Positions 12,377 to 56,065 of a stretch of 64,000 nt of DNA are shown piece after piece. A program made the position numbers and the translations under genes. Below the pieces are notes generated by a model. The model made no database searches. It saw nothing but the letters and a program-made list of their open reading frames with translations, and was not told the origin of the DNA. This stretch comes from Nitrososphaeria archaeon (GTDB taxonomy: Archaea; Thermoproteota; Nitrososphaeria; Nitrososphaerales; JACAEJ01): assembly GCA_029775925.1 (NCBI GenBank), contig JARVKB010000008.1, positions 3,394-67,393 of the forward strand, given 5' to 3'. The stretch's first letter is position 1; every line of letters begins with the position of its first letter.

Positions 12377-15300
12377 TTGAGGATAAAGGATTTACCTATA
12401 CCTGAAAAATTAATACGACTTATAGAATCACTTGGTTACTTTAATCTTTATCCGCCTCAAGAAGAGGCTGTAAAAGCAGGAGTATTGGAAGGCCAGAATT
12501 TACTCCTAACAACACCAACTGCCAGTGGAAAGACTCTTGTAGCTATGCTAGCGGCTGGAAAGATAGTCCTAGAAGGGCTAGGAAAAGTTGTCTATCTTAC
12601 TCCATTAAGGGCTCTTGCAAATGAGAAGTATAATGATTTTAAGGCTTTTGAAAATTTAATTAAACCTAATGGTAATCATGTAAAAGTTCTCATCTCAACA
12701 GGAGATTATGACTCATCAGGAGAATCCTTAGGATTAGGTGATATACTTATTCTTACAAATGAAAAGTTCGATTCTGTCCTTCGTCATGGTGTATCTTGGA
12801 TAGACTCTGTGAAACTCTTCGTTACTGATGAAATTCATATTGTTGGTGATGATGACAGAGGACCAACCCTTGAGATGACTGTAACTAAAATTCTTTCTTA
12901 CGCTAATAATGCACAAGTCCTTGCCTTGAGTGCTACAGTAAAGAATTCAAAGGAATTGGCAGACTGGCTTGGAGCAAAACTTATAGACATAAAGTGGAGG
13001 CCTATAAAGTTAATTGAAGGGGTTTACCAGCATGGAGAGATAATTTTTTCTGATGATTCAAAAAGAAAAATAAAACCAACGAATAGAGGGCATGCTATAG
13101 ATGTAGCAATAGATGCAATTAACGAAGGAGGACAATCCCTTATATTTACAGAAACAAGGAAAATGGCAGTAAGTCTCGCCCTCAAGGCTTCAGAACTTAC
13201 CCAGCATCATTTAACAAAGGCTGAAGTTAAAAAGGCTAAAGAATTATCAATGAATATATTATCATCAGGGGAAGAGACAGAATTAAGCAGGACTTTATCT
13301 AAAGTAGTCGAGAAAGGGACGGCTTTCCATCATGCTGGGCTTACTGGAGCGCATAGATCGATAATAGAGGATGGATTCAAAAATGGCTTGATCAAAATCT
13401 TAACTGCAACCCCTACACTTGCAGCAGGGGTAAACCTTCCAGCGAGGAGGGTGGTGATAAGCAGCTTGATGAGGTACGATTCAGACTATGGAGGAAAGGC
13501 ACCTATCAGTGTATTAGAATATAAGCAAATGTGTCTACCCTATTGGACAAAAGTTCTGATAAGTGATGGGACAATGATGCCTATAGGCGAAATTGTAGAG
13601 AAGAAGGTAGCTGATAGAGTAATAACATTTGACAAAAGAAAAGAGAAGTTCGTATATGGGAGAATCATTGATTGGTTTTCAAGAGAAACTGATTGTCTAT
13701 TAGAAATAGAAACAAGCGGAGGATTAAAAATTCGTCTTACACCAGAGCACCCGATTCTAACTAAAGAGATAGGATGGATATCTGCAAAAAATGTGAAAAT
13801 AGGGGAGAGAGTGGGTTATGCAAGAGAATTTGAGTATATTCCAGATAAGAACCTTCTATTTTTCTTTAAGCATATACCAATTAACGGGACATACTTGAAA
13901 AATACGACAGATCTCTTCGATCTCGCAAAGCTAAAATTCACACGTAAAGAATTGGCTACTTTATTAGGTAAAGATCTAAAAGTGGTAAAGGAATATGTAA
14001 GGGGAAAGAAAGCAATACCACTTTCTGTCATATTGGCACTTTGTAAACTATTGAATCTTAGCGATAATGAAATCGCTGAAAGGCTGAAAGAAGTCAAAAC
14101 AGCTTATGGAACACCGCTAAAAATTCCAAAATACATAAACGAGGAATTTATGTGGCTACTAGGGTTTATTGCTTCATATGGTAATATTGAAGAAATTGTA
14201 GATAAAAGAACTAAATCAGTTTATCATAAAATCAGGGTCTTTAATAAAAATCCTAAAATTATTGATAAAACCATTGATATCTTACATTCTCTGGGTCTCT
14301 TTCCCTACGTTCGTAAAAAAGACAATTACACATCGGTTGAAGTTGGCTCTACGTTATTGGCTAATTTAATGAGAAAATTTGGAATTCCATTCGGAACAAA
14401 GGATAAATTAAGGGTTGCAGAAACCATTTTTTCTTTCCCTCCAAATTTGATTGGTGCCTACTTGATGGGCGTATTTGACGGCGATGGAAATTATATAGAA
14501 TTAAAATCTAAATCAACTATAAGAAGGATAGTAATCTCAACAGCAAGTGAAGAATTCGCTTACGATCTTCATAATTTACTGATAAGGTTAGGAATAGTTT
14601 CTTATATTAAGAAAACACAACCTAAGCCTGCGCTTATTAGAAGTAAAAGAGCCGAATTTAAAAAGCCAGTTTACAACATTATCTTTAGGAAGATAAGAGA
14701 TATAAAAAAATTCACTTCCTATGGGACTCCAGTTAAATATAACATACCTTTCATTGATTACAGCAAATATCATAATCTGAACAAATACCATACTATCATC
14801 GAGCCTGTAGAGTGGCTAAAAGTGAAATACATTAAGATAATCAATGAAAAAACAAAGGTTTATAACATATCGGTAGAAGACACGGAGAATTACATAGCTG
14901 AAAATTTTATTGTCCATAATTGCGGGAGAGCTGGTAGACCAAAATATGACGATATCGGAGAGACAGTGATAATAGCACATAATCAATATGAAGCTGATGA
15001 AATTTTATATAACTACATAAAAGGTGAACCAGAACCAATTAGCTCAAAATTGCATGATGAATCTGCTTTAAGGATTCATCTTTTAGCGACTATTGCAAGC
15101 CTTCCTGGTATTACAGATGTTGAGATCCTTAAACTTCTTTCTAAATCTCTTTTAGCCATTCAGTATAGACATGCTGCCATTCAATCAAAAGTCAATAAAG
15201 TAATAAATTATCTTTTAGGTGAAGGTTTGATAGAAAGAAGAGGGAAGCGTTACATTGCCAGCGAATTTGGAAAAAGAGTCTCCACTCTTTACATTGACCC

Positions 15301-15955
15301 ATTAACAGGAGTAATATTTAAAAGAGCAATAAACCTTGCAAAGAAAAATAACCCTCATTTGTTAGGCTTTCTCCACCTAATAGTCTCTTCTCCAGACTTC
15401 TCACCAAAATTTCCATTAAGGAGTAGAGACATAGATGAAGCTCAAAGGCTTTTTGATCAAAATAAGGATGAATTTATATTACCTTTGCATAAGAATGATA
15501 TTTATGAAGATTATTTTAAAGATTTTAGGAGTCTTCTCGTCCTTTATGGTTGGATAAATGAATGGAGTGAAGATAAAATACTTGATAAATTGGGGGTAGA
15601 ACCAGGAGACTTACACAGAGCTGTAGAAACTTCTGAATGGCTCGTCCACTCCTTATTTGAGCTATCTAAGTTGCTAGGAAGAGTAGATCTTTTACCTGAG
15701 ATTGCACAGCTGGAGCAAAGAGTAAAGCAAGGAATAAAACCTGAACTCATACCTTTGGCAAAGTTGGAAGGAATAGGGAGAGTAAGGGCTAGATCCTTAT
15801 ACAATCATGGCTTTACAGATCTTGACAAATTGGCATCGGCATCTATTGATAAAATAGCCTCAATACCAAAAATAGGTATTATAATGGCTAAGAGTATTAA
15901 GAAGCAGCTACAAGAGAGAAATAAATTTAAGTATAAACTAAATCACATCGATTAA
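12377..15955 (+). CDS. hel308: Hel308/Hjm-type Ski2-like DNA helicase, interrupted by an intein
   Basis: TTG start gives MRIKDLPIPEKL...LYPPQ (Q motif). Motifs TPTASGKT (Walker A), DEIH and SAT are present. Motif VI QM/CGRAGRP is split by a 463-aa insert. A C-terminal winged-helix/HhH region is present. Confidence 0.9.
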   Translation: MRIKDLPIPEKLIRLIESLGYFNLYPPQEEAVKAGVLEGQNLLLTTPTASGKTLVAMLAAGKIVLEGLGKVVYLTPLRALANEKYNDFKAFENLIKPNGNHVKVLISTGDYDSSGESLGLGDILILTNEKFDSVLRHGVSWIDSVKLFVTDEIHIVGDDDRGPTLEMTVTKILSYANNAQVLALSATVKNSKELADWLGAKLIDIKWRPIKLIEGVYQHGEIIFSDDSKRKIKPTNRGHAIDVAIDAINEGGQSLIFTETRKMAVSLALKASELTQHHLTKAEVKKAKELSMNILSSGEETELSRTLSKVVEKGTAFHHAGLTGAHRSIIEDGFKNGLIKILTATPTLAAGVNLPARRVVISSLMRYDSDYGGKAPISVLEYKQMCLPYWTKVLISDGTMMPIGEIVEKKVADRVITFDKRKEKFVYGRIIDWFSRETDCLLEIETSGGLKIRLTPEHPILTKEIGWISAKNVKIGERVGYAREFEYIPDKNLLFFFKHIPINGTYLKNTTDLFDLAKLKFTRKELATLLGKDLKVVKEYVRGKKAIPLSVILALCKLLNLSDNEIAERLKEVKTAYGTPLKIPKYINEEFMWLLGFIASYGNIEEIVDKRTKSVYHKIRVFNKNPKIIDKTIDILHSLGLFPYVRKKDNYTSVEVGSTLLANLMRKFGIPFGTKDKLRVAETIFSFPPNLIGAYLMGVFDGDGNYIELKSKSTIRRIVISTASEEFAYDLHNLLIRLGIVSYIKKTQPKPALIRSKRAEFKKPVYNIIFRKIRDIKKFTSYGTPVKYNIPFIDYSKYHNLNKYHTIIEPVEWLKVKYIKIINEKTKVYNISVEDTENYIAENFIVHNCGRAGRPKYDDIGETVIIAHNQYEADEILYNYIKGEPEPISSKLHDESALRIHLLATIASLPGITDVEILKLLSKSLLAIQYRHAAIQSKVNKVINYLLGEGLIERRGKRYIASEFGKRVSTLYIDPLTGVIFKRAINLAKKNNPHLLGFLHLIVSSPDFSPKFPLRSRDIDEAQRLFDQNKDEFILPLHKNDIYEDYFKDFRSLLVLYGWINEWSEDKILDKLGVEPGDLHRAVETSEWLVHSLFELSKLLGRVDLLPEIAQLEQRVKQGIKPELIPLAKLEGIGRVRARSLYNHGFTDLDKLASASIDKIASIPKIGIIMAKSIKKQLQERNKFKYKLNHID
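13532..14920 (+). mobile_element. Intein (463 aa) with a LAGLIDADG homing-endonuclease domain, inserted in helicase motif VI
   Basis: Starts with Cys (CLPYWTKVLISDG), has TPEHPIL block B and LAGLIDADG blocks LLGFIASYGN and YLMGVFDGDGNY, and ends ...NFIVHN followed by a +1 Cys. Excision restores EYKQM-CGRAGRP. Confidence 0.85.
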
Positions 15956-21057: not shown

Positions 21058-21783
21058 TTAATCAATTTTCCAAATATCAGAATCTGTCAAATCTACATCA
21101 AGACAATTCATTCTTAGAAATTCTAGCAATTCTTTAGATACTTTTACTTCTTTTGGCATCCATTCATGATAACTTTTGTACTTTATAGCTATTACACCGT
21201 CAAAAGATTTATTGAACTCTCTTACACTCGTAATAACGCTCTTCTCATCTATTCCTTCTATGCCGAATAGTACATAAGTTATAAATTCTATCAAATTGCC
21301 AAATTTACTCTTCATTTCACTTCTAAGCTTTAAGATTCTTCTTAACTCTGAATCCTTTATCCCTTTATTCAAAAGATCGTTCCTTATATCATCATAAATA
21401 GATTCAAATCCTATCCTTAAGATAAGCTTTCTTGGTTTTAATGTATTGAACAGATGGCCGATGCTATCTTTACTGAGAAACTCCGGTCTACTTTCTATCT
21501 CAATTATTTTTTTATTTGTTATATTTGATAAATCATAAACCACACTCAATGGCAATTCAAAGAAAGATCCGCCGTTAAAAATAGATATTCTATCTACTGG
21601 TTTTTCTTTCATCAAACATTCTGTTTTTTTGATAATTTCTTTGTTTGTTGAAATTAGATTGTCGATATCTCTTGTAGCTTCTTCATAAAAGCAGCAAAAA
21701 GTACATCTATTCCATGAGCAAGTAAAACCCTTTAAAATTACTACTATCTTTTTTGTTTTTTCATCGTAAGTTATACCTATCAC
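21058..21783 (-). CDS. Radical SAM-like protein, candidate RaSEA-type partner of archaeosine synthase
   Basis: Cys cluster C-x4-C-x2-C (CSWNRCTFC, nt 21691-21720) follows an N-terminal beta strand, with a TIM-barrel-like alternating pattern. It overlaps the upstream ArcS-like gene by 4 nt. Confidence 0.5.
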   Translation of the reverse strand: MIGITYDEKTKKIVVILKGFTCSWNRCTFCCFYEEATRDIDNLISTNKEIIKKTECLMKEKPVDRISIFNGGSFFELPLSVVYDLSNITNKKIIEIESRPEFLSKDSIGHLFNTLKPRKLILRIGFESIYDDIRNDLLNKGIKDSELRRILKLRSEMKSKFGNLIEFITYVLFGIEGIDEKSVITSVREFNKSFDGVIAIKYKSYHEWMPKEVKVSKELLEFLRMNCLDVDLTDSDIWKID

Positions 21784-22460
21784 ATTAAAGCCTCCTTTAT
21801 TCTTTTAATCAAATTCTGAAGATTTTTTGATGTTATCAGGATTAAATCTTCCTCATGATCATAAACACCATAAGCCACTTTGTTGATTTCAGATCTATTT
21901 ATGCTAATTGGGTTTAGAGAAAAATTAGGAATATTTAAATCGAGATCATGCTCAACTCTTCTTATAGCTTTATATGAATCAGAGTTCCATCTTAAATAAC
22001 AAGCAAATTTGTCGTAATAGTCCTTAAATTTCAATATATAATTTTTAAGCCTCCTAAAAAGCACATTAATATATCTATTTTTTATATCAGAATTTTCAAA
22101 TCTAGGGTTCCAATCATAGCAACAAAATGGATAAAATTCCTCCAATTCTCTTGGGACTATGCCTGCATTCGTCAATATTATTTGATGAATTTTATAATAA
22201 TCATTCTTCAGACTCCTTAGAGATTTTATTATCATATAGTGAATGTATGATTGAGAGTAAGGTTTACCATAAGAGCAAGGTAGAAATAAGCATAGCTTGT
22301 AATGAGTCTTTGGCTTATAAATGGATAAAATTTTGCTATGTGCTTCTTCAAAGAAAGGATGAGTTAGAAATTTTTCTCCTACCCCTCGTAAGAAGGTTTT
22401 TCCATTTCCTGCCCAGATTAACTCTTTTCCATCCCAAATATTTTTACTCTTTCTTTTCAT
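21780..22460 (-). CDS. Stand-alone ArcS-like (DUF5591-type) domain protein
   Basis: LPCSYGKPYSQSYIH (nt 22239-22280) fits the PC-x3-KPY-x2-S-x2-H signature recalled for the archaeosine synthase catalytic domain. At 226 aa it has no TGT-like or PUA domains. Confidence 0.55.
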   Translation of the reverse strand: MKRKSKNIWDGKELIWAGNGKTFLRGVGEKFLTHPFFEEAHSKILSIYKPKTHYKLCLFLPCSYGKPYSQSYIHYMIIKSLRSLKNDYYKIHQIILTNAGIVPRELEEFYPFCCYDWNPRFENSDIKNRYINVLFRRLKNYILKFKDYYDKFACYLRWNSDSYKAIRRVEHDLDLNIPNFSLNPISINRSEINKVAYGVYDHEEDLILITSKNLQNLIKRIKEALM

Positions 22461-23390: not shown

Positions 23391-23798
23391 ATGAAGCTAA
23401 ATCCTATAGGAATAATAGGTGGCATCGTTCTAATAATTTCTCCCTTCCTTCCGTGGGTCAGCGTCTTGTTCTTCAATTTAAGTCTACTAGATCTTCTTTC
23501 ATTTAGCACGTTAATCGGCGATGCTACTTACTACATTATCCTGATCATTCTAACCTTATTGGTATTGGGTGGTATTATAGCTCTTTTTAAAGGATTAATA
23601 GGAGGTATAATAGGCCTTGTTGGCGTGCTTATTTTTACTATCTTAATATTGGTTGGTGGACAAACCTTTGCTGTAACTGCTTATCTCGGTATAGGTTATT
23701 ATCTAGCATGGATAGGTGCTATCTTGAGCATAATTTCTATTGTTTGGAAAAGGCTTACGCCCGCTCCTTCCATACCTCCGCCGCCTCCGCCAACTTAA
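23391..23798 (+). CDS. Small polytopic membrane protein with a C-terminal tail APSIPPPPPPT-stop
   Basis: 135 aa, almost entirely hydrophobic (about 4 TM). Six Pro codons lie at 23775-23792. It is a paralog of the next gene. Confidence 0.7.
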   Translation: MKLNPIGIIGGIVLIISPFLPWVSVLFFNLSLLDLLSFSTLIGDATYYIILIILTLLVLGGIIALFKGLIGGIIGLVGVLIFTILILVGGQTFAVTAYLGIGYYLAWIGAILSIISIVWKRLTPAPSIPPPPPPT

Positions 23799-23907: not shown

Positions 23908-24477
23908 TTGAAAATAAATTATATTGGTATTTTTGGAGGTATATTGGCATTCGTCAGCTTAGCTTTAGCATGGTGGACAATGTCCCTTTCGGTCACAGGA
24001 ATGGGAATGACTATAGGTGGCGAAGTTTCAATATACCCCTATCAAGCGAAGGCATCGATGATGGGGTTGTCGGAGGCGATCCCTATGGATATGTGGTTCG
24101 GTTGGGCAGTTTTCGCTCTTATCCTCGTAGGTGGTTTACTGGGGATAATAGGTAGTATCACAAAATATGGCGGAAAGTTGCTTATTATTGGTGGAGTACT
24201 CGCTTTTCTTTCAATAATAATCTTTGTAGTGGGTTTGCAGATGGGGTTATCGGATCTACAGAGACAACTTTTGGAATTCGGTATGTCCCCGACAGGGTTA
24301 GGTTTATTCTCTAGCGGAACTATGAATTTAGGTTATGGAGTAATTGCAAACTATTCAACTTATCTATCTTTTGGCTTTTGGTTAGCACTAATAGCAGCGG
24401 TCTTAATGTTTGTTGCTGCCTTAAGAAAGGTGGAAGTTGCCCCTTCTATACCTCCACCACCCCCTCCTCCTACCTAA
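23908..24477 (+). CDS. Small polytopic membrane protein with a C-terminal tail APSIPPPPPPPT-stop
   Basis: TTG start gives MKINYIGIFGGI, parallel to MKLNPIGIIGGI of the upstream paralog. 189 aa, about 4 TM. Seven Pro codons lie at 24451-24471. Confidence 0.7.
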   Translation: MKINYIGIFGGILAFVSLALAWWTMSLSVTGMGMTIGGEVSIYPYQAKASMMGLSEAIPMDMWFGWAVFALILVGGLLGIIGSITKYGGKLLIIGGVLAFLSIIIFVVGLQMGLSDLQRQLLEFGMSPTGLGLFSSGTMNLGYGVIANYSTYLSFGFWLALIAAVLMFVAALRKVEVAPSIPPPPPPPT

Positions 24478-36649: not shown

Positions 36650-37588
36650 TTGCTACATATAAGATGCACTAAGTGTGGTAATAAAGCTATATATTATAGA
36701 GTTTACTCTGGTGAGAAACTTTGTAACGCTTGCTTCTGCTCATCCGTTATGGAAAAAGTGAAAAGAACAATCGCTAAATTTAATCTATTAAAATATGGAG
36801 ATAGAATAGGTGTTGCAGTTTCAGGTGGAAAGGATAGCTTAAGCTTACTCAAAATACTTAATGAGATATGTAAGCCTCATGCATCAAAGCTTTACGCTAT
36901 TACTATAGATGAGGGAATCTTTGGGTATCGTGAAGAAGCTATTGGAATATGTAAAAAATTCATTAAAGAGATTAATGTTCCTCATTATGTATTCTCATTT
37001 AGAAAGCTTTATGGATTTGGCCTAGATGATGTTATTAAGCTTAGAAAAAGTAAGATATCGGCTTGCTCTATCTGTGGGATTTTAAGGAGAAGAGCCTTAG
37101 ATATTGCTGCTAAGGAGTTAGACGTAAATGTTATTGCTACTGCTCATAACCTTGATGATATTATCCAAACCTTCATGATAAACATATTGAATGGAGATAC
37201 CGATAGAATAAGGTGGTTAGACCCTGAGATAAAGCCGAGAAGTGCATTCATTATAAGAAGAGTAAAACCGTTGATGGAGATTTATGAGAAAGAGATTGCT
37301 ATGTATGCTTTTCTTAACAATATTCCATTTCAAACTGTAACCTGCCCATATATGAATGAAGGAATAAGATCAGAAATTAGATTTATAATAAATGCTCTAG
37401 AAGATAAGCATCCAGGAGTAAAGTATAACATTTTGAATACTGCTATAAAAATTTCGCAAGGATTGTTTATGGAAGAGAGAGTGCTAATGGTTTGTAAATT
37501 ATGTAACTTTCCATCTTCCAGTGAATTATGCTCTGTATGTAAGATTTTAGAGACAATAAAGGGAAATATTATATATAAAAATCATTAA
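36650..37588 (+). CDS. tRNA 2-thiolation PP-loop ATPase (TtuA/NcsA/Ctu1 family)
   Basis: N-terminal zinc finger CTKCG...CNAC, PP-loop SGGKDS, central CSICG, and C-terminal CKLC...CSVC. TTG start. Confidence 0.75.
   Translation: MLHIRCTKCGNKAIYYRVYSGEKLCNACFCSSVMEKVKRTIAKFNLLKYGDRIGVAVSGGKDSLSLLKILNEICKPHASKLYAITIDEGIFGYREEAIGICKKFIKEINVPHYVFSFRKLYGFGLDDVIKLRKSKISACSICGILRRRALDIAAKELDVNVIATAHNLDDIIQTFMINILNGDTDRIRWLDPEIKPRSAFIIRRVKPLMEIYEKEIAMYAFLNNIPFQTVTCPYMNEGIRSEIRFIINALEDKHPGVKYNILNTAIKISQGLFMEERVLMVCKLCNFPSSSELCSVCKILETIKGNIIYKNH
37571..37580 (+). promoter_or_regulatory. Candidate TATA box for the SRP RNA gene
   Basis: atatataaaa is centred about 24 nt upstream of the first paired base of the SRP RNA. 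It lies inside the 3' end of the preceding CDS. Confidence 0.35.
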
Positions 37589-48771: not shown

Positions 48772-49470
48772 TCATTTTATTTGCAACGCTAATATTGCCT
48801 TTCTTAAAAGACCCATTAAAAGATATGATTCCCTGGGAGTTGGTTTGCCTTTTACCATCAACTTTTTCATAACTTCCTCGATCAAGGGTATTTTATGCTT
48901 TTGAAAACCACACATCTCTGCCAATTTTATAGAATATTTTATAATCCTGTCTTTATCTTCCCTTGATACTATCTCTTCATTAGATTCGGTCTTTTTCTTT
49001 AAAATCTCATATAGTATTATGGCAACAGAATGAGATATGTTTAAAGTTCTATATTCTGTTCCGGTACTTATACTAGTTACTAAATCACATTTTTTCAATT
49101 CCTTGTTACTAAGTCCTGTTGATTCACGCCCAAAAAGTAAACAAAGAGTTCCAGAGTAATCTTTTAAATTCTCAGCAAGATCTTCAGGAGTTAAAGCTTT
49201 TCTTAAAATATTTGACGACTTTTTTGCTACTATAGCAGTAGTGCCAATGACGGTATCAAAGCTTTTTATTAGCTCATCAAAGCTTATAATTTTAGCTTTT
49301 TCGAGAATATCCGATCCATGAGATGCGAACTTCTTTGCTTCGTTTAAATTTACTTTAGGGTTTATTAATAAAAGTTCTTCTAGGCCAAAATTCTTCATAA
49401 CTCTTGCGATAAGGCCAACGTTAACTTCATAAATAGGCTCCACAAGGGCTATTGAAAATTTTTTTATCAT
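48772..49470 (-). CDS. SPOUT (SpoU/TrmH family) RNA 2'-O-methyltransferase, TrmJ-like
   Basis: LVEPIYEVNVGLIARVMKNFG, LLFGRESTGLSNKEL and LNISHSVAIILYE motifs. 232 aa. Confidence 0.8.
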   Translation of the reverse strand: MIKKFSIALVEPIYEVNVGLIARVMKNFGLEELLLINPKVNLNEAKKFASHGSDILEKAKIISFDELIKSFDTVIGTTAIVAKKSSNILRKALTPEDLAENLKDYSGTLCLLFGRESTGLSNKELKKCDLVTSISTGTEYRTLNISHSVAIILYEILKKKTESNEEIVSREDKDRIIKYSIKLAEMCGFQKHKIPLIEEVMKKLMVKGKPTPRESYLLMGLLRKAILALQIK

Positions 49471-50772: not shown

Positions 50773-51321
50773 ATGAGGCATGGTTCATACGAGCCGGCAG
50801 AAGATACTTTTCTACTTGCCGATGTTATTAGACGATATTCAAACAAAATCGCTTTAGAGATAGGAGTGGGTTCAGGCTATGTCATTGCTGAAATCTGTAA
50901 AAGAAATCCCTTTGTAGTGGGAACCGAAATCAACGAGAAAGCGTTAAAAGAAGCTCAAATAAGGCTAAAATCTCTTAATTTTGATAATTTCGAATTAGTG
51001 CTTTGTGACGGAGCAAGTGCTTTTCGTAAAAGATGCTTCGACCTTATAGTTTTCAATCCGCCTTATCTTCCTTCTGAAAGAATAGTAGATAGAAATGTTG
51101 AGGGTGGAAAAGAAGGTATTGAAGTAGCGGAGAGGTTTATAGAGCAATCCCTAAGGGTAATTTCAAAATCAGGATCTATAGTATTCATTTTGTCTACTTT
51201 GTCGAATTATGAGAAGATAATGAGAATGTTAAGGAAGATGAATTTTAAAGTGAGAAAAATAGGCAAGCGTAAATTGTTTTTTGAAGAAATTTTTGCACTA
51301 GAAGTATCAAAGATTGCATAA
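50773..51321 (+). CDS. N5-glutamine methyltransferase, HemK/Mtq2 family (release-factor methylation)
   Basis: YEPAEDTFLL N-terminus, SAM motif EIGVGSGY and the catalytic NPPY (VFNPPYLP). 182 aa. Confidence 0.7.
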   Translation: MRHGSYEPAEDTFLLADVIRRYSNKIALEIGVGSGYVIAEICKRNPFVVGTEINEKALKEAQIRLKSLNFDNFELVLCDGASAFRKRCFDLIVFNPPYLPSERIVDRNVEGGKEGIEVAERFIEQSLRVISKSGSIVFILSTLSNYEKIMRMLRKMNFKVRKIGKRKLFFEEIFALEVSKIA

Positions 51322-52059
51322 TTCTTTACCGATTCTTACCGATTCTTCTACTGTTAGTTGCTCAACTCTTTTTTGTAAAATTTCATAATCTAATCTATAC
51401 AGTATTTTTTCATAATCTTTACCCTGTTTTTTACAGATCATCTTTAAAGCTTTAAAGACCTTCTTTCCACGAAAAGAAAATAGAATTTTTATGCATTTAA
51501 TAATTGAGGCATTTATCCTATCTTTTTTTGGCTTTAGCAATATCATTAGCGATGTAACTTTAGGTCTAGGCTTGAAGGCTTCTCTATTAACTTCTATCAA
51601 AGGCTCTATGTCAAAGCTCGATCTTGCTATGACGGTCACCGCTCTATAATCATTAGAGCCTGGCTGAGAGAGCAACTTTTCTGCAAACTCTTTTTGAAAA
51701 TTTACTACTGCTATGTCAAAATCCTTCTTTATCAACCACTCTATGAATTCTTTAGATTTAGAGTATGGTATGTTCGATACTAGTTTATTGAACTTATGCC
51801 TAGATTCAAGAGCATCTCCATGAATCAAATTTAGATTTTTAAATCTGCTTAGCCTCGATTTAGCCTTCTCATAAAGTTCCTTATCTATTTCCCATGAGAT
51901 TACCGTCTTAGCTTTATTACATAAAATCTCTGTTAAATTACCAGTCCCGGCACCAAACTCAAAAACTATGTCATTTTTTGATACTTTAGCAAATTCAACC
52001 ATTTTATTGAGCAAATGATCGTCGATAAGTAAGTGTTGTCCTAAACTTCTTCTCTTCAT
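51307..52059 (-). CDS. rsmA: 16S rRNA (adenine1518/1519-N6)-dimethyltransferase KsgA/Dim1
   Basis: LGQHLLID N-terminal motif, EFGAGTGNLT SAM motif and SNIPY. 250 aa. Confidence 0.9.
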   Translation of the reverse strand: MKRRSLGQHLLIDDHLLNKMVEFAKVSKNDIVFEFGAGTGNLTEILCNKAKTVISWEIDKELYEKAKSRLSRFKNLNLIHGDALESRHKFNKLVSNIPYSKSKEFIEWLIKKDFDIAVVNFQKEFAEKLLSQPGSNDYRAVTVIARSSFDIEPLIEVNREAFKPRPKVTSLMILLKPKKDRINASIIKCIKILFSFRGKKVFKALKMICKKQGKDYEKILYRLDYEILQKRVEQLTVEESVRIGKELCNL

Positions 52060-54805: not shown

Positions 54806-56065
54806 TTAGACTTCAACATCTAATATGTCAAAAATATCACAACTTGCTTTTACACCCATTATTTCAGAAACATTCGGAGTTATTTCTAAAAGATCTTTTT
54901 TCATGCCACGATTCGAACCACTTATAAAACTTTTTATGTTTAATCCCCCATCACATTTGAATGTAATCTTTATTACTCTCTCATTTATTCTTTCCACATT
55001 AAAGTCATAGATTTTCTTTATGAGAGGTTTTTTCTTCAATTGTATAATTCTAACTTCAGAATTTTGCAATCTTTCTTTAAGACTATTCAGTTTTTCTTCA
55101 TTCACTTCTCCATCAAATTTTACATGAGCGGCTACTTTTACTTTAAAAGTTGGAATCTTTTTTGGTTTTTCATCAATTATCTTTACCTCCTTTAGAATAA
55201 TTCCATTATCTTCTTTTAACAATTCAGACTCATCTATATGTCTTAGCTTAGGCCCGATTAATTCCGCGTAGAAAGGTCGGCCATTGCCAAGAACAAGACT
55301 CTCAGTGCTCTCTCCTCCTACCCATGTAAATTTTGCATCTTTTGCATCAAATTTTTTAATCAAAGCCTGAGCGAGAATTTGTTCAACGCTTTTCTCCTTC
55401 GAGAATCCTGTATATTCACATTCAGAACAACCTTTTCCTTTACATTTTCTACACTTCCTACGTTTTTGGGGTAATCCTCTTATTGTTTTTAGGTATCTGC
55501 CATAAATGGATAAAGATCTGGGATTAAGATATATCTTTCCAGATATAAAATCCACTAAAATCATCATATCTGGCTTGTAAAAATTGACTTTTCTATTAGT
55601 CCTAGTGGCTATGGTCTTTCCTATTTCTCTTGTTATCTCTCCCTTTATCGTTTCTCCTCCTCTCAACTTAAACTTAGCCCTTATAATATCCTCTTTTTCA
55701 ATAAAATCTTTTGGAAGTTTTGCACCTATTAGAAAATCATTAAAATCAAAATCTTTTAATTGCTCTAAAACCTTGACGGAAATATCTTTGATGGATTGCA
55801 TGGTATCCTGACAAATAAAACATGGTTCTTCCTTTACTTTCATTTTAACTTCTTTCTTTATAGTCTTGCCTTTAACTTCATTATTTTCTTCTTTTATGCT
55901 TGGGAACTGCCTCCCTAGGCACCAATCACATAGGGAATACTCAGAAAGTATGTTCTTAGCCAAATTAATTATACTTTTTTCAATAGGCGGCATCAGAGCA
56001 CTAAACTTATTATAAATAAAGTAATTAAAAGGGTTAAGGCCAATCAGAAGACGGATTATCTTCAT
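54806..56065 (-). CDS. pus10: tRNA pseudouridine synthase Pus10 (psi54/55)
   Basis: N-terminal zinc motif LCDWCLGRQF...CFICQD, a THUMP-like middle region, and a C-terminal catalytic domain. 419 aa. Confidence 0.8.
   Translation of the reverse strand: MKIIRLLIGLNPFNYFIYNKFSALMPPIEKSIINLAKNILSEYSLCDWCLGRQFPSIKEENNEVKGKTIKKEVKMKVKEEPCFICQDTMQSIKDISVKVLEQLKDFDFNDFLIGAKLPKDFIEKEDIIRAKFKLRGGETIKGEITREIGKTIATRTNRKVNFYKPDMMILVDFISGKIYLNPRSLSIYGRYLKTIRGLPQKRRKCRKCKGKGCSECEYTGFSKEKSVEQILAQALIKKFDAKDAKFTWVGGESTESLVLGNGRPFYAELIGPKLRHIDESELLKEDNGIILKEVKIIDEKPKKIPTFKVKVAAHVKFDGEVNEEKLNSLKERLQNSEVRIIQLKKKPLIKKIYDFNVERINERVIKITFKCDGGLNIKSFISGSNRGMKKDLLEITPNVSEIMGVKASCDIFDILDVEV

Follow-up and report, generated by a model that had tools for sequence, protein, structure and literature searches.

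The stretch analysed here, referred to throughout as the window, comprises 64,000 nucleotides (nt) of contig JARVKB010000008.1 from a Nitrososphaeria archaeon (GCA_029775925.1). It is an AT-rich chromosomal segment (35% G+C) carrying an archaeal signal recognition particle RNA, MCM, an A-type ATPase operon and other housekeeping genes. Two short, overlapping genes on its minus strand encode a stand-alone version of the catalytic core of archaeosine synthase ArcS, known as the C1 domain or DUF5591, and a compact radical S-adenosylmethionine (SAM) protein from the clade that contains the enzymes RaSEA and QueL. The features of this gene pair are the following:

21780-22460, minus strand: open reading frame (ORF) with an ATG start, encoding the stand-alone ArcS-core (C1, DUF5591) protein of 226 amino acids (aa)
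22239-22280, minus strand: catalytic signature PC-x3-KPY-x2-S-x2-H, read as PCSYGKPYSQSYIH, within the 226-aa ORF
21058-21783, minus strand: ORF with a GTG start, encoding the compact radical SAM partner of the RaSEA/QueL clade, 241 aa
21694-21720, minus strand: CX4CX2C triad CSWNRCTFC, predicted to bind the [4Fe-4S]/SAM cluster, within the 241-aa ORF
21780-21783, minus strand: 4-nt start/stop overlap GTGA, read from the sequence, which would allow translational coupling
21791-21795, minus strand: GGAGG, a putative Shine-Dalgarno-like element preceding the GTG of the radical SAM gene by 7 nt

Both ORFs match the public gene calls on JAVZCS010000003.1, a contig of a metagenome-assembled genome (MAG) from a Nitrososphaerales archaeon (GCA_038874295.1) that includes a part identical to the window, where proteins of 226 and 241 aa are likewise called with a 4-nt overlap. 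The GTG start of the radical SAM gene is supported by its homologues, all of which begin with M-[IL]-G. A preliminary description of the window, made from the sequence alone, had pointed out the overlap and the ArcS signature. GTGA indeed reads from 21783 to 21780, and the signature lies at exactly the coordinates given there. The same description recognised the cysteine motif correctly and placed its start at 21691, a slip of 3 nt.

Stand-alone ArcS core protein

The 226-aa protein matched PF17884 (DUF5591) over residues 42-145, with 55 bits against a Pfam cut-off of 26 bits, and Pfam detected no other credible domain in it: no tRNA-guanine transglycosylase (TGT)-like domain, no C2 and no PUA. 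The two hidden Markov models (HMMs) of the ArcS equivalog, NF040592 and NF053620, aligned solely with the C1 segment (positions 221-302 of 515 and 284-355 of 575). With 55 bits against cut-offs of 440 and 600, the protein stays far below the score of a full-length ArcS. The lack of TGT-like and PUA domains that had been proposed for this ORF is thus borne out by both kinds of model. Whereas ArcS of approximately 575 aa combines an N-terminal TGT-like domain with C1, C2 and PUA, the window protein consists of C1 and a family-specific N-terminal segment.

The motif PC-x3-KPY-x2-S-x2-H is the one defined for the C1 domain of ArcS (PMC10516641, PMC5699537). Its occurrence in the 226-aa ORF was the sole match in a six-frame translation of the window, with approximately 2.4e-5 matches expected by chance. 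Residues P61, C62, K66, P67, Y68, S71 and H74 were invariant among 22 aligned family members, as was a second block, NAG[VI][VI]PRELxE..P...YDWNP. Other invariant segments are specific to the family and missing from canonical C1 domains, namely W9/G11/W16 and LRGVG in the N-terminal part and YLRW-S-S in the C-terminal part.

The AlphaFold2 model of the protein reached a pLDDT of 84. By sequence, profile or fold, its only significant relative in the PDB was AF0587 from Archaeoglobus fulgidus (2q07), a split ArcS in which C1 is also encoded apart from the TGT-like N-terminal domain, and with which the VPRE..YP..YD motif aligns. AF0587 (306 aa) nevertheless keeps the C2 and PUA domains absent from the window protein, and is itself devoid of the N-terminal W-rich/LRGVG segment. 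More than 130 homologues were found, all single-domain proteins of 200-255 aa, in Nitrososphaerales, Bathyarchaeia, Thermoprotei, Desulfurococcales, Pyrodictium and Pyrolobus.

Distant viral relatives were detected as well (22-38% identity, E 7e-24 to 2e-4), including proteins of STSV1/2, nt-1 and PhiF1, and the window protein matched one PHROG, to which no function is assigned there. The viral ArcS2 proteins of phage nt-1 and Sulfolobus virus STSV2 resemble it in being stand-alone C1/DUF5591 proteins without RNA-binding domains and with a conserved or slightly degenerate motif, but they work with DpdA on DNA and have no radical SAM partner (PMC10516641). The closest viral relative, with 38% identity and an E-value of 7e-24, is encoded by Methanobacterium virus PhiF1 (MK994522.1, 72368-72880). 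It is also of the stand-alone C1 type and is annotated as 'putative archaeosine tRNA-guanine transglycosylase'. Neither a TGT nor a radical SAM gene adjoins it, and a Dam-like methyltransferase is encoded approximately 2 kb away.

Radical SAM partner

QueL cuts the N-alkyl bond of queuine to give preQ1, and RaSEA and QueL share the ability to break an N-alkyl bond in the side chain at C7 of a 7-deazaguanine. The best NCBIfam family of the 241-aa protein was RaSEA (TIGR01210; E 4.2e-16, 59 bits), whereas the closest solved structure was that of QueL from Clostridium spiroforme (6p78, 251 aa, bound to SAM and queuine), with E-values of 2.5e-13 by sequence and 4e-23 by profile. The AlphaFold2 model (pLDDT 94) superposed on 6p78 over the whole chain, with TM scores of 0.67/0.70 over 229 columns, covering 229 of 230 residues.

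The cysteines C22, C27 and C30 were invariant among 26 family members and in a joint alignment with RaSEA-like and QueL-like proteins. The Cys triad, NGGSFFE, ESRPE, IG[LF]E and IRN..LNKG were common to the short radical SAM family and to both of these groups. RaSEA-like proteins carry a Cys-rich C-terminal extension that the short family and the QueL-like proteins do not have. Comparison with hhalign gave an E-value of 4.6e-33 against RaSEA-like proteins (32% identity) and 6.2e-32 against QueL-like proteins (24% identity, with the alignment extending through the C-terminus), both at 99.9% probability; RaSEA-like and QueL-like proteins matched each other at just 3.6e-23. Profile-profile comparison therefore puts the short family between the two groups.

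The likeness to QueL extends to size (approximately 250 aa), C-terminal layout, the Cys triad, (N)xGSFFELP, IRN..LNKG and the general activity of QueL as a radical lyase on a 7-deazaguanine side chain, although identity between the two is only 22-24%. The two also differ in setting. QueL is bacterial, serves the salvage of queuine to preQ1 and is linked with queuosine-salvage genes, whereas the window protein is archaeal and paired with an ArcS core; in contrast to the QueL context, the neighbours of window-type radical SAM genes are DUF5591 and QPTR, with no TGT within the fetched flanks (up to 10 kb per side).

Approximately 80 homologues of 236-268 aa were found, nearly all annotated as 'hypothetical protein'. 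They were restricted to archaea (Thermoproteota and Asgard) and occurred in the same lineages as the DUF5591 homologues, with Asgard MAGs in addition; no viral homologue of the radical SAM protein was found. In an exhaustive profile search, four full-length representatives at 50% identity scored at least 295 bits, after which the scores fell to at most 96 bits for RaSEA-like (310-370 aa) and QueL-like (230-256 aa) proteins. Among the distant matches were proteins of 500-750 aa in which a RaSEA/QueL-clade radical SAM domain is fused C-terminally to a TIR (P0262, P0289, P0291), SIR2 (P0267), Pol-beta nucleotidyltransferase (P0320) or response regulator receiver domain (P0295). These architectures are reminiscent of anti-phage defence effectors and are unrelated to the window.

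Conserved pairing and genomic neighbourhood

Sixty-five loci were compared: the window, four loci obtained by protein look-up, with L002 removed because it duplicated L001, and 61 loci from one genome per GTDB species. The radical SAM gene adjoined the DUF5591 gene in 57 of the 65, in 56 of them on the same strand. Among the 45 loci flanked on either side by 1.5 kb or more, 40 showed this adjacency. Two gene orders occurred. The DUF5591 gene preceded the radical SAM gene in 22 loci, mostly from Nitrososphaeria and Bathyarchaeia with some from Thermoprotei, and followed it in 35, mostly from Desulfurococcales. The median gap within the pair was 15-35 nt, and most related loci showed the same overlap or a very short gap. 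Linkage that is kept through rearrangement into two orders indicates selection for linkage and argues for functional coupling. In some close relatives (L001/L002, L006 and L007) the genes do not overlap and lie approximately 460-560 nt apart; in L001/L002 a 69-aa ORF is called in this spacer on the opposite strand, and the spacer represents an insertion or else a small gene confined to the lineage.

Two separately fetched Asgard loci also contained the pair, its genes overlapping there by 1 nt. The DUF5591 proteins encoded there (L066, 5366-6001; L067, 5375-6001) have VC for PC in the catalytic motif and VPY for VPRE, and are without the W-x-G...W segment found invariantly in the N-terminal part of TACK members. 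The Asgard pair is surrounded by HGD-D/BcrAD genes of the 2-hydroxyacyl-CoA dehydratase type.

A gene for QPTR/YhhQ (Vut_1, PF02592, COG1738; 124-186 bits) adjoined the pair in 26 loci, typically in the order QPTR, radical SAM, DUF5591. These loci (L003, L004 and 24 more, such as L028 and L061) belong to Desulfurococcales, Acidilobaceae and one Bathyarchaeia MAG. QPTR is a characterised family of preQ0/preQ1 transporters, whose archaeal members have been proposed to act in preQ0 salvage (PMC5372724, PMC11130926), so its adjacency constitutes independent evidence tying the pair to 7-deazaguanine metabolism. The functional pairing inferred in the preliminary description from the resemblance to ArcS and RaSEA is strongly supported by the frequency of adjacency, by the two gene orders, by a distribution from Nitrososphaeria to Desulfurococcales and Asgard, and by the link with QPTR.

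In the lineage of the window, QPTR was absent from beside the pair, and across the 65 loci no further conserved neighbours were seen beyond lineage synteny. Some loci seemed to hold a second DUF5591 paralogue, but this was spurious and arose from single-linkage clustering by way of ABC ATPases. Nearly every window ORF of 120 aa or more was annotated with Pfam, as were approximately 14.5 kb more of the contig, and this detected no tgt, dpdA, queC/D/E, QueF-like or QPTR gene in the 64-kb window or the additional 14.5 kb (78.5 kb in total).

The two genes of the pair have the lowest G+C content among 53 large ORFs of the window (29.2% and 29.7%, against a mean of 35.8% with a standard deviation of 3.1). 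Relatives at 82% identity keep synteny around them, which argues against their recent transfer, and inheritance of the pair looks vertical.

Discussion

Archaeosine at position G15 stabilises archaeal tRNA and is required for growth at high temperature. In the ArcS-RaSEA complex of Euryarchaeota, studied in Thermococcus kodakarensis (Yokogawa, 2019, as cited in PMC11298593), lysine is first attached by ArcS to the nitrile of preQ0-tRNA. RaSEA then removes the carbon chain of that lysine in a radical reaction, so that the amidine of archaeosine (G+) remains, and the two proteins co-purify (PMC11298593). Most Crenarchaea, by contrast, are described in current reviews as being without arcS and using Gat-QueC or QueF-like enzymes instead. 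The pair in the window shares with ArcS-RaSEA a complete PC-x3-KPY-x2-S-x2-H in C1, a radical SAM partner of the TIGR01210 clade, the pairing itself and the presumed substrate, preQ0. It differs in its hosts, which belong to TACK and Asgard, and in the size of its proteins. The latter had been remarked on previously, and holds for both (226 aa against approximately 575 aa for ArcS, and 241 aa against approximately 313-360 aa for RaSEA).

Judging from homology, motif conservation, fold and conserved gene pairing, the pair is probably a minimal ArcS-core/RaSEA-like enzyme that would convert preQ0 into archaeosine through an amine adduct followed by radical C-N cleavage, most likely on tRNA. The two proteins would be its two subunits and may form a complex, as ArcS and RaSEA do. 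The DUF5591 core would activate the preQ0 nitrile, probably via the invariant Cys of PC-x3-KPY, and add an amine, presumably lysine as in T. kodakarensis ArcS, to form an N-alkyl amidine. The co-translated radical SAM protein would then generate a 5'-deoxyadenosyl radical and cut the N-alkyl C-N bond, releasing the free amidine of G+. The substrate would most probably be preQ0 already placed at G15 of tRNA by ArcTGT, and tRNA specificity would come from ArcTGT rather than from the DUF5591/radical SAM pair. In many Desulfurococcales, where the pair and the QPTR/YhhQ importer form one cluster, the arrangement suggests that salvaged preQ0 may feed this pathway.

Since a complete ArcS catalytic core is accompanied by a member of the same lyase clade, the same two-step route is the most economical proposal. 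How so small a pair could recognise tRNA was raised as a puzzle in the preliminary description, and it is largely defused by the properties of T. kodakarensis ArcS, which requires neither the L-shape nor the sequence of tRNA, accepts preQ0 nucleoside and its 5'-monophosphate but not the free base, and does not bind ArcTGT (PMC11298593). An ArcS that neither needs tRNA structure nor binds ArcTGT implies that specificity is set by ArcTGT, and the acceptance of preQ0 nucleoside makes a domain-free ArcS core mechanistically plausible on tRNA-bound preQ0. The single tRNA gene of the window carries G15, which lends weak and generic support to a tRNA target.

Several observations weigh against this proposal. 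As to HMM membership, which had been suggested as a check, DUF5591 passed its threshold and TIGR01210 was the best family, but the radical SAM protein remained below the RaSEA equivalog cut-off (59 against 212 bits), aligned over profile positions 9-189 of 313 only, and is without the Cys-rich C-terminal extension of RaSEA (N-C-x-K-C ... C-x-C). Together with its about equal closeness to QueL, these features make it a member of a sister family and not RaSEA proper; the drop from at least 295 to at most 96 bits further marks this family as discrete, so that its substrate could differ. The module would thus work like ArcS-RaSEA, yet by curated models neither protein is in the corresponding equivalog family. 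A recognisable RNA-binding domain was found in neither protein, and isoelectric points, taken as a proxy for RNA binding, are not consistently basic across the families (9.4 for the window protein, with a family median of 7.6). A partner is also not universal, as the DUF5591 gene had no adjoining radical SAM gene in five well-flanked loci (L023, L035, L040, L043 and L053). Moreover, ArcS2 of phage nt-1, together with DpdA2, makes dG+ in Escherichia coli in the absence of RaSEA (PMC10516641), and a radical SAM partner may thus not be strictly required by a bare C1 core. Finally, a search with Pyrococcus horikoshii ArcTGT, validated as the 1iq8 sequence (1296 bits), found no TGT/DpdA-like match in 913 kb of the window and fetched loci (up to 10 kb of flank per side), and queC/D/E were not found in this DNA either. 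This result and that for the que genes concern linked DNA, and mean that such genes are not linked to the pair, without implying their absence from the genomes.

The lack of RNA-binding domains would be accounted for if the same chemistry took place on a free 7-deazaguanine before insertion. Imported preQ0 would be turned into the G+ base or nucleoside and inserted by a crenarchaeal arcTGT of broad specificity; a broader substrate specificity of this enzyme was reportedly proposed by Phillips et al. in 2012. The tight clustering of the pair with a preQ0 transporter is in line with this, and published work has not settled whether Gat-QueC precedes or follows insertion, nor whether the G+ base can be inserted by arcTGT (PMC5699537). 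Canonical ArcS, however, does not accept preQ0 as a free base and requires the ribose as a minimum (PMC11298593), no QPTR lies next to the pair in the window's genome, and a clustered transporter would be just as expected were salvaged preQ0 inserted first, so that we consider action on the free substrate unlikely. The transporter, along with the fact that the closest solved structure and a similar compact architecture are those of a salvage lyase, could also be taken to indicate salvage of the QueL kind, with the radical SAM protein trimming an imported N-substituted 7-deazaguanine (a derivative of G+ or an adduct of preQ0 with an amine, for instance) back to a precursor that can be used, helped by the DUF5591 protein. 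This seems very unlikely to us: archaea do not make queuosine, no radical chemistry would be required to turn an unsubstituted amidine into a nitrile, near-obligate pairing with an amine-adding ArcS core suits synthesis better, and core identity is higher to RaSEA-like (32%) than to QueL-like proteins (24%).

Stand-alone C1 proteins are also what the viruses STSV1/2, nt-1 and PhiF1 use, and that of nt-1 yields dG+ with DpdA2 (PMC10516641). By extension, the pair might be a DNA-modification module of the viral ArcS2 type, its DUF5591 protein turning dPreQ0 in DNA into dG+ or another derivative. Such a role is highly improbable given that the 913 kb searched held no DpdA/TGT-like gene, that PADLOC found no defence match for the pair, that the radical SAM protein has no viral homologue, and that a conserved housekeeping context and seemingly vertical inheritance accompany identities of only 22-38% to the viral proteins. 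A different product would be in keeping with the discreteness of both families from the characterised enzymes, with the invariant segments W9/G11/W16, LRGVG and YLRW-S-S that canonical C1 domains do not have, and with the association of the STSV2 ArcS homologue with dCDG and not with dG+ (PMC10516641). In that case the pair would use another amine donor or make a nucleoside other than G+, possibly at another RNA position or on a small molecule. We regard this as quite unlikely, as every residue of the ArcS catalytic motif is kept, nothing positive indicates another product, and ArcS/RaSEA chemistry is not known to end in anything but G+.

A stand-alone ArcS core is not new in itself, as stand-alone C1 domains have already been noted in some archaea and, as ArcS2, in viruses (PMC10516641). 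In the literature searched, no description was found of the compact radical SAM partner family, of its near-obligate pairing with DUF5591, of its spread in TACK and Asgard or of its linkage with QPTR. As a minimal archaeosine-forming enzyme, the conserved pair would change the picture of which archaea produce G+ and by what route. It occurs in Nitrososphaeria, Bathyarchaeia, Desulfurococcales and Asgard, and would close a gap in the annotation of a widespread archaeal tRNA modification. It would also constitute the smallest natural scaffold for nitrile-to-amidine and radical C-N lyase chemistry on 7-deazaguanines, and both DUF5591 and the unnamed radical SAM family would gain a testable annotation. 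The linkage with QPTR also suggests that preQ0 in many hyperthermophiles is obtained by salvage instead of synthesis. More speculatively, the pair could be the missing archaeosine synthase of much of TACK and Asgard and a fourth genetic solution beside full-length ArcS-RaSEA, Gat-QueC and QueF-like, with its radical SAM protein as a third functional branch of the RaSEA/QueL clade. As the pair has no RNA-binding domains, its substrate might even be QPTR-imported preQ0 in the form of nucleoside or free base, or its product might be a derivative different from G+. We see this combined scenario as rather unlikely. The prediction as a whole is clean and testable rather than a conceptual surprise.

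Other features of the window

A scan for bacterial-type promoters and terminators, a method not applicable to archaea, gave no enrichment. A match to isrJ, obtained from Rfam at a permissive threshold, was sub-threshold and inside coding sequence, and was treated as a chance match. RNA-modification genes are abundant in the window, none of them linked to the pair, and encode a TtuA-like PP-loop 2-thiouridine synthetase, a SpoU methylase, KsgA/RrnaAD and Pus10 (36650-37588, 48772-49470, 51307-52059 and 54806-56065).

On the plus strand, positions 12377-15955 encode a Hel308-type helicase of 1192 aa with an inserted intein that carries a LAGLIDADG homing-endonuclease domain (Pfam matches DEAD, Helicase_dom4_arc, Intein_splicing and LAGLIDADG_3); the gene calls of the public contig likewise include the form with the intein. 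Also on the plus strand, 23391-23798 and 23908-24477 encode neighbouring predicted multi-pass membrane proteins of 135 and 189 aa without a Pfam match. Both end in an odd C-terminal proline tail, ...APSIPPPPPP(P)T, and they look like tandem paralogues.

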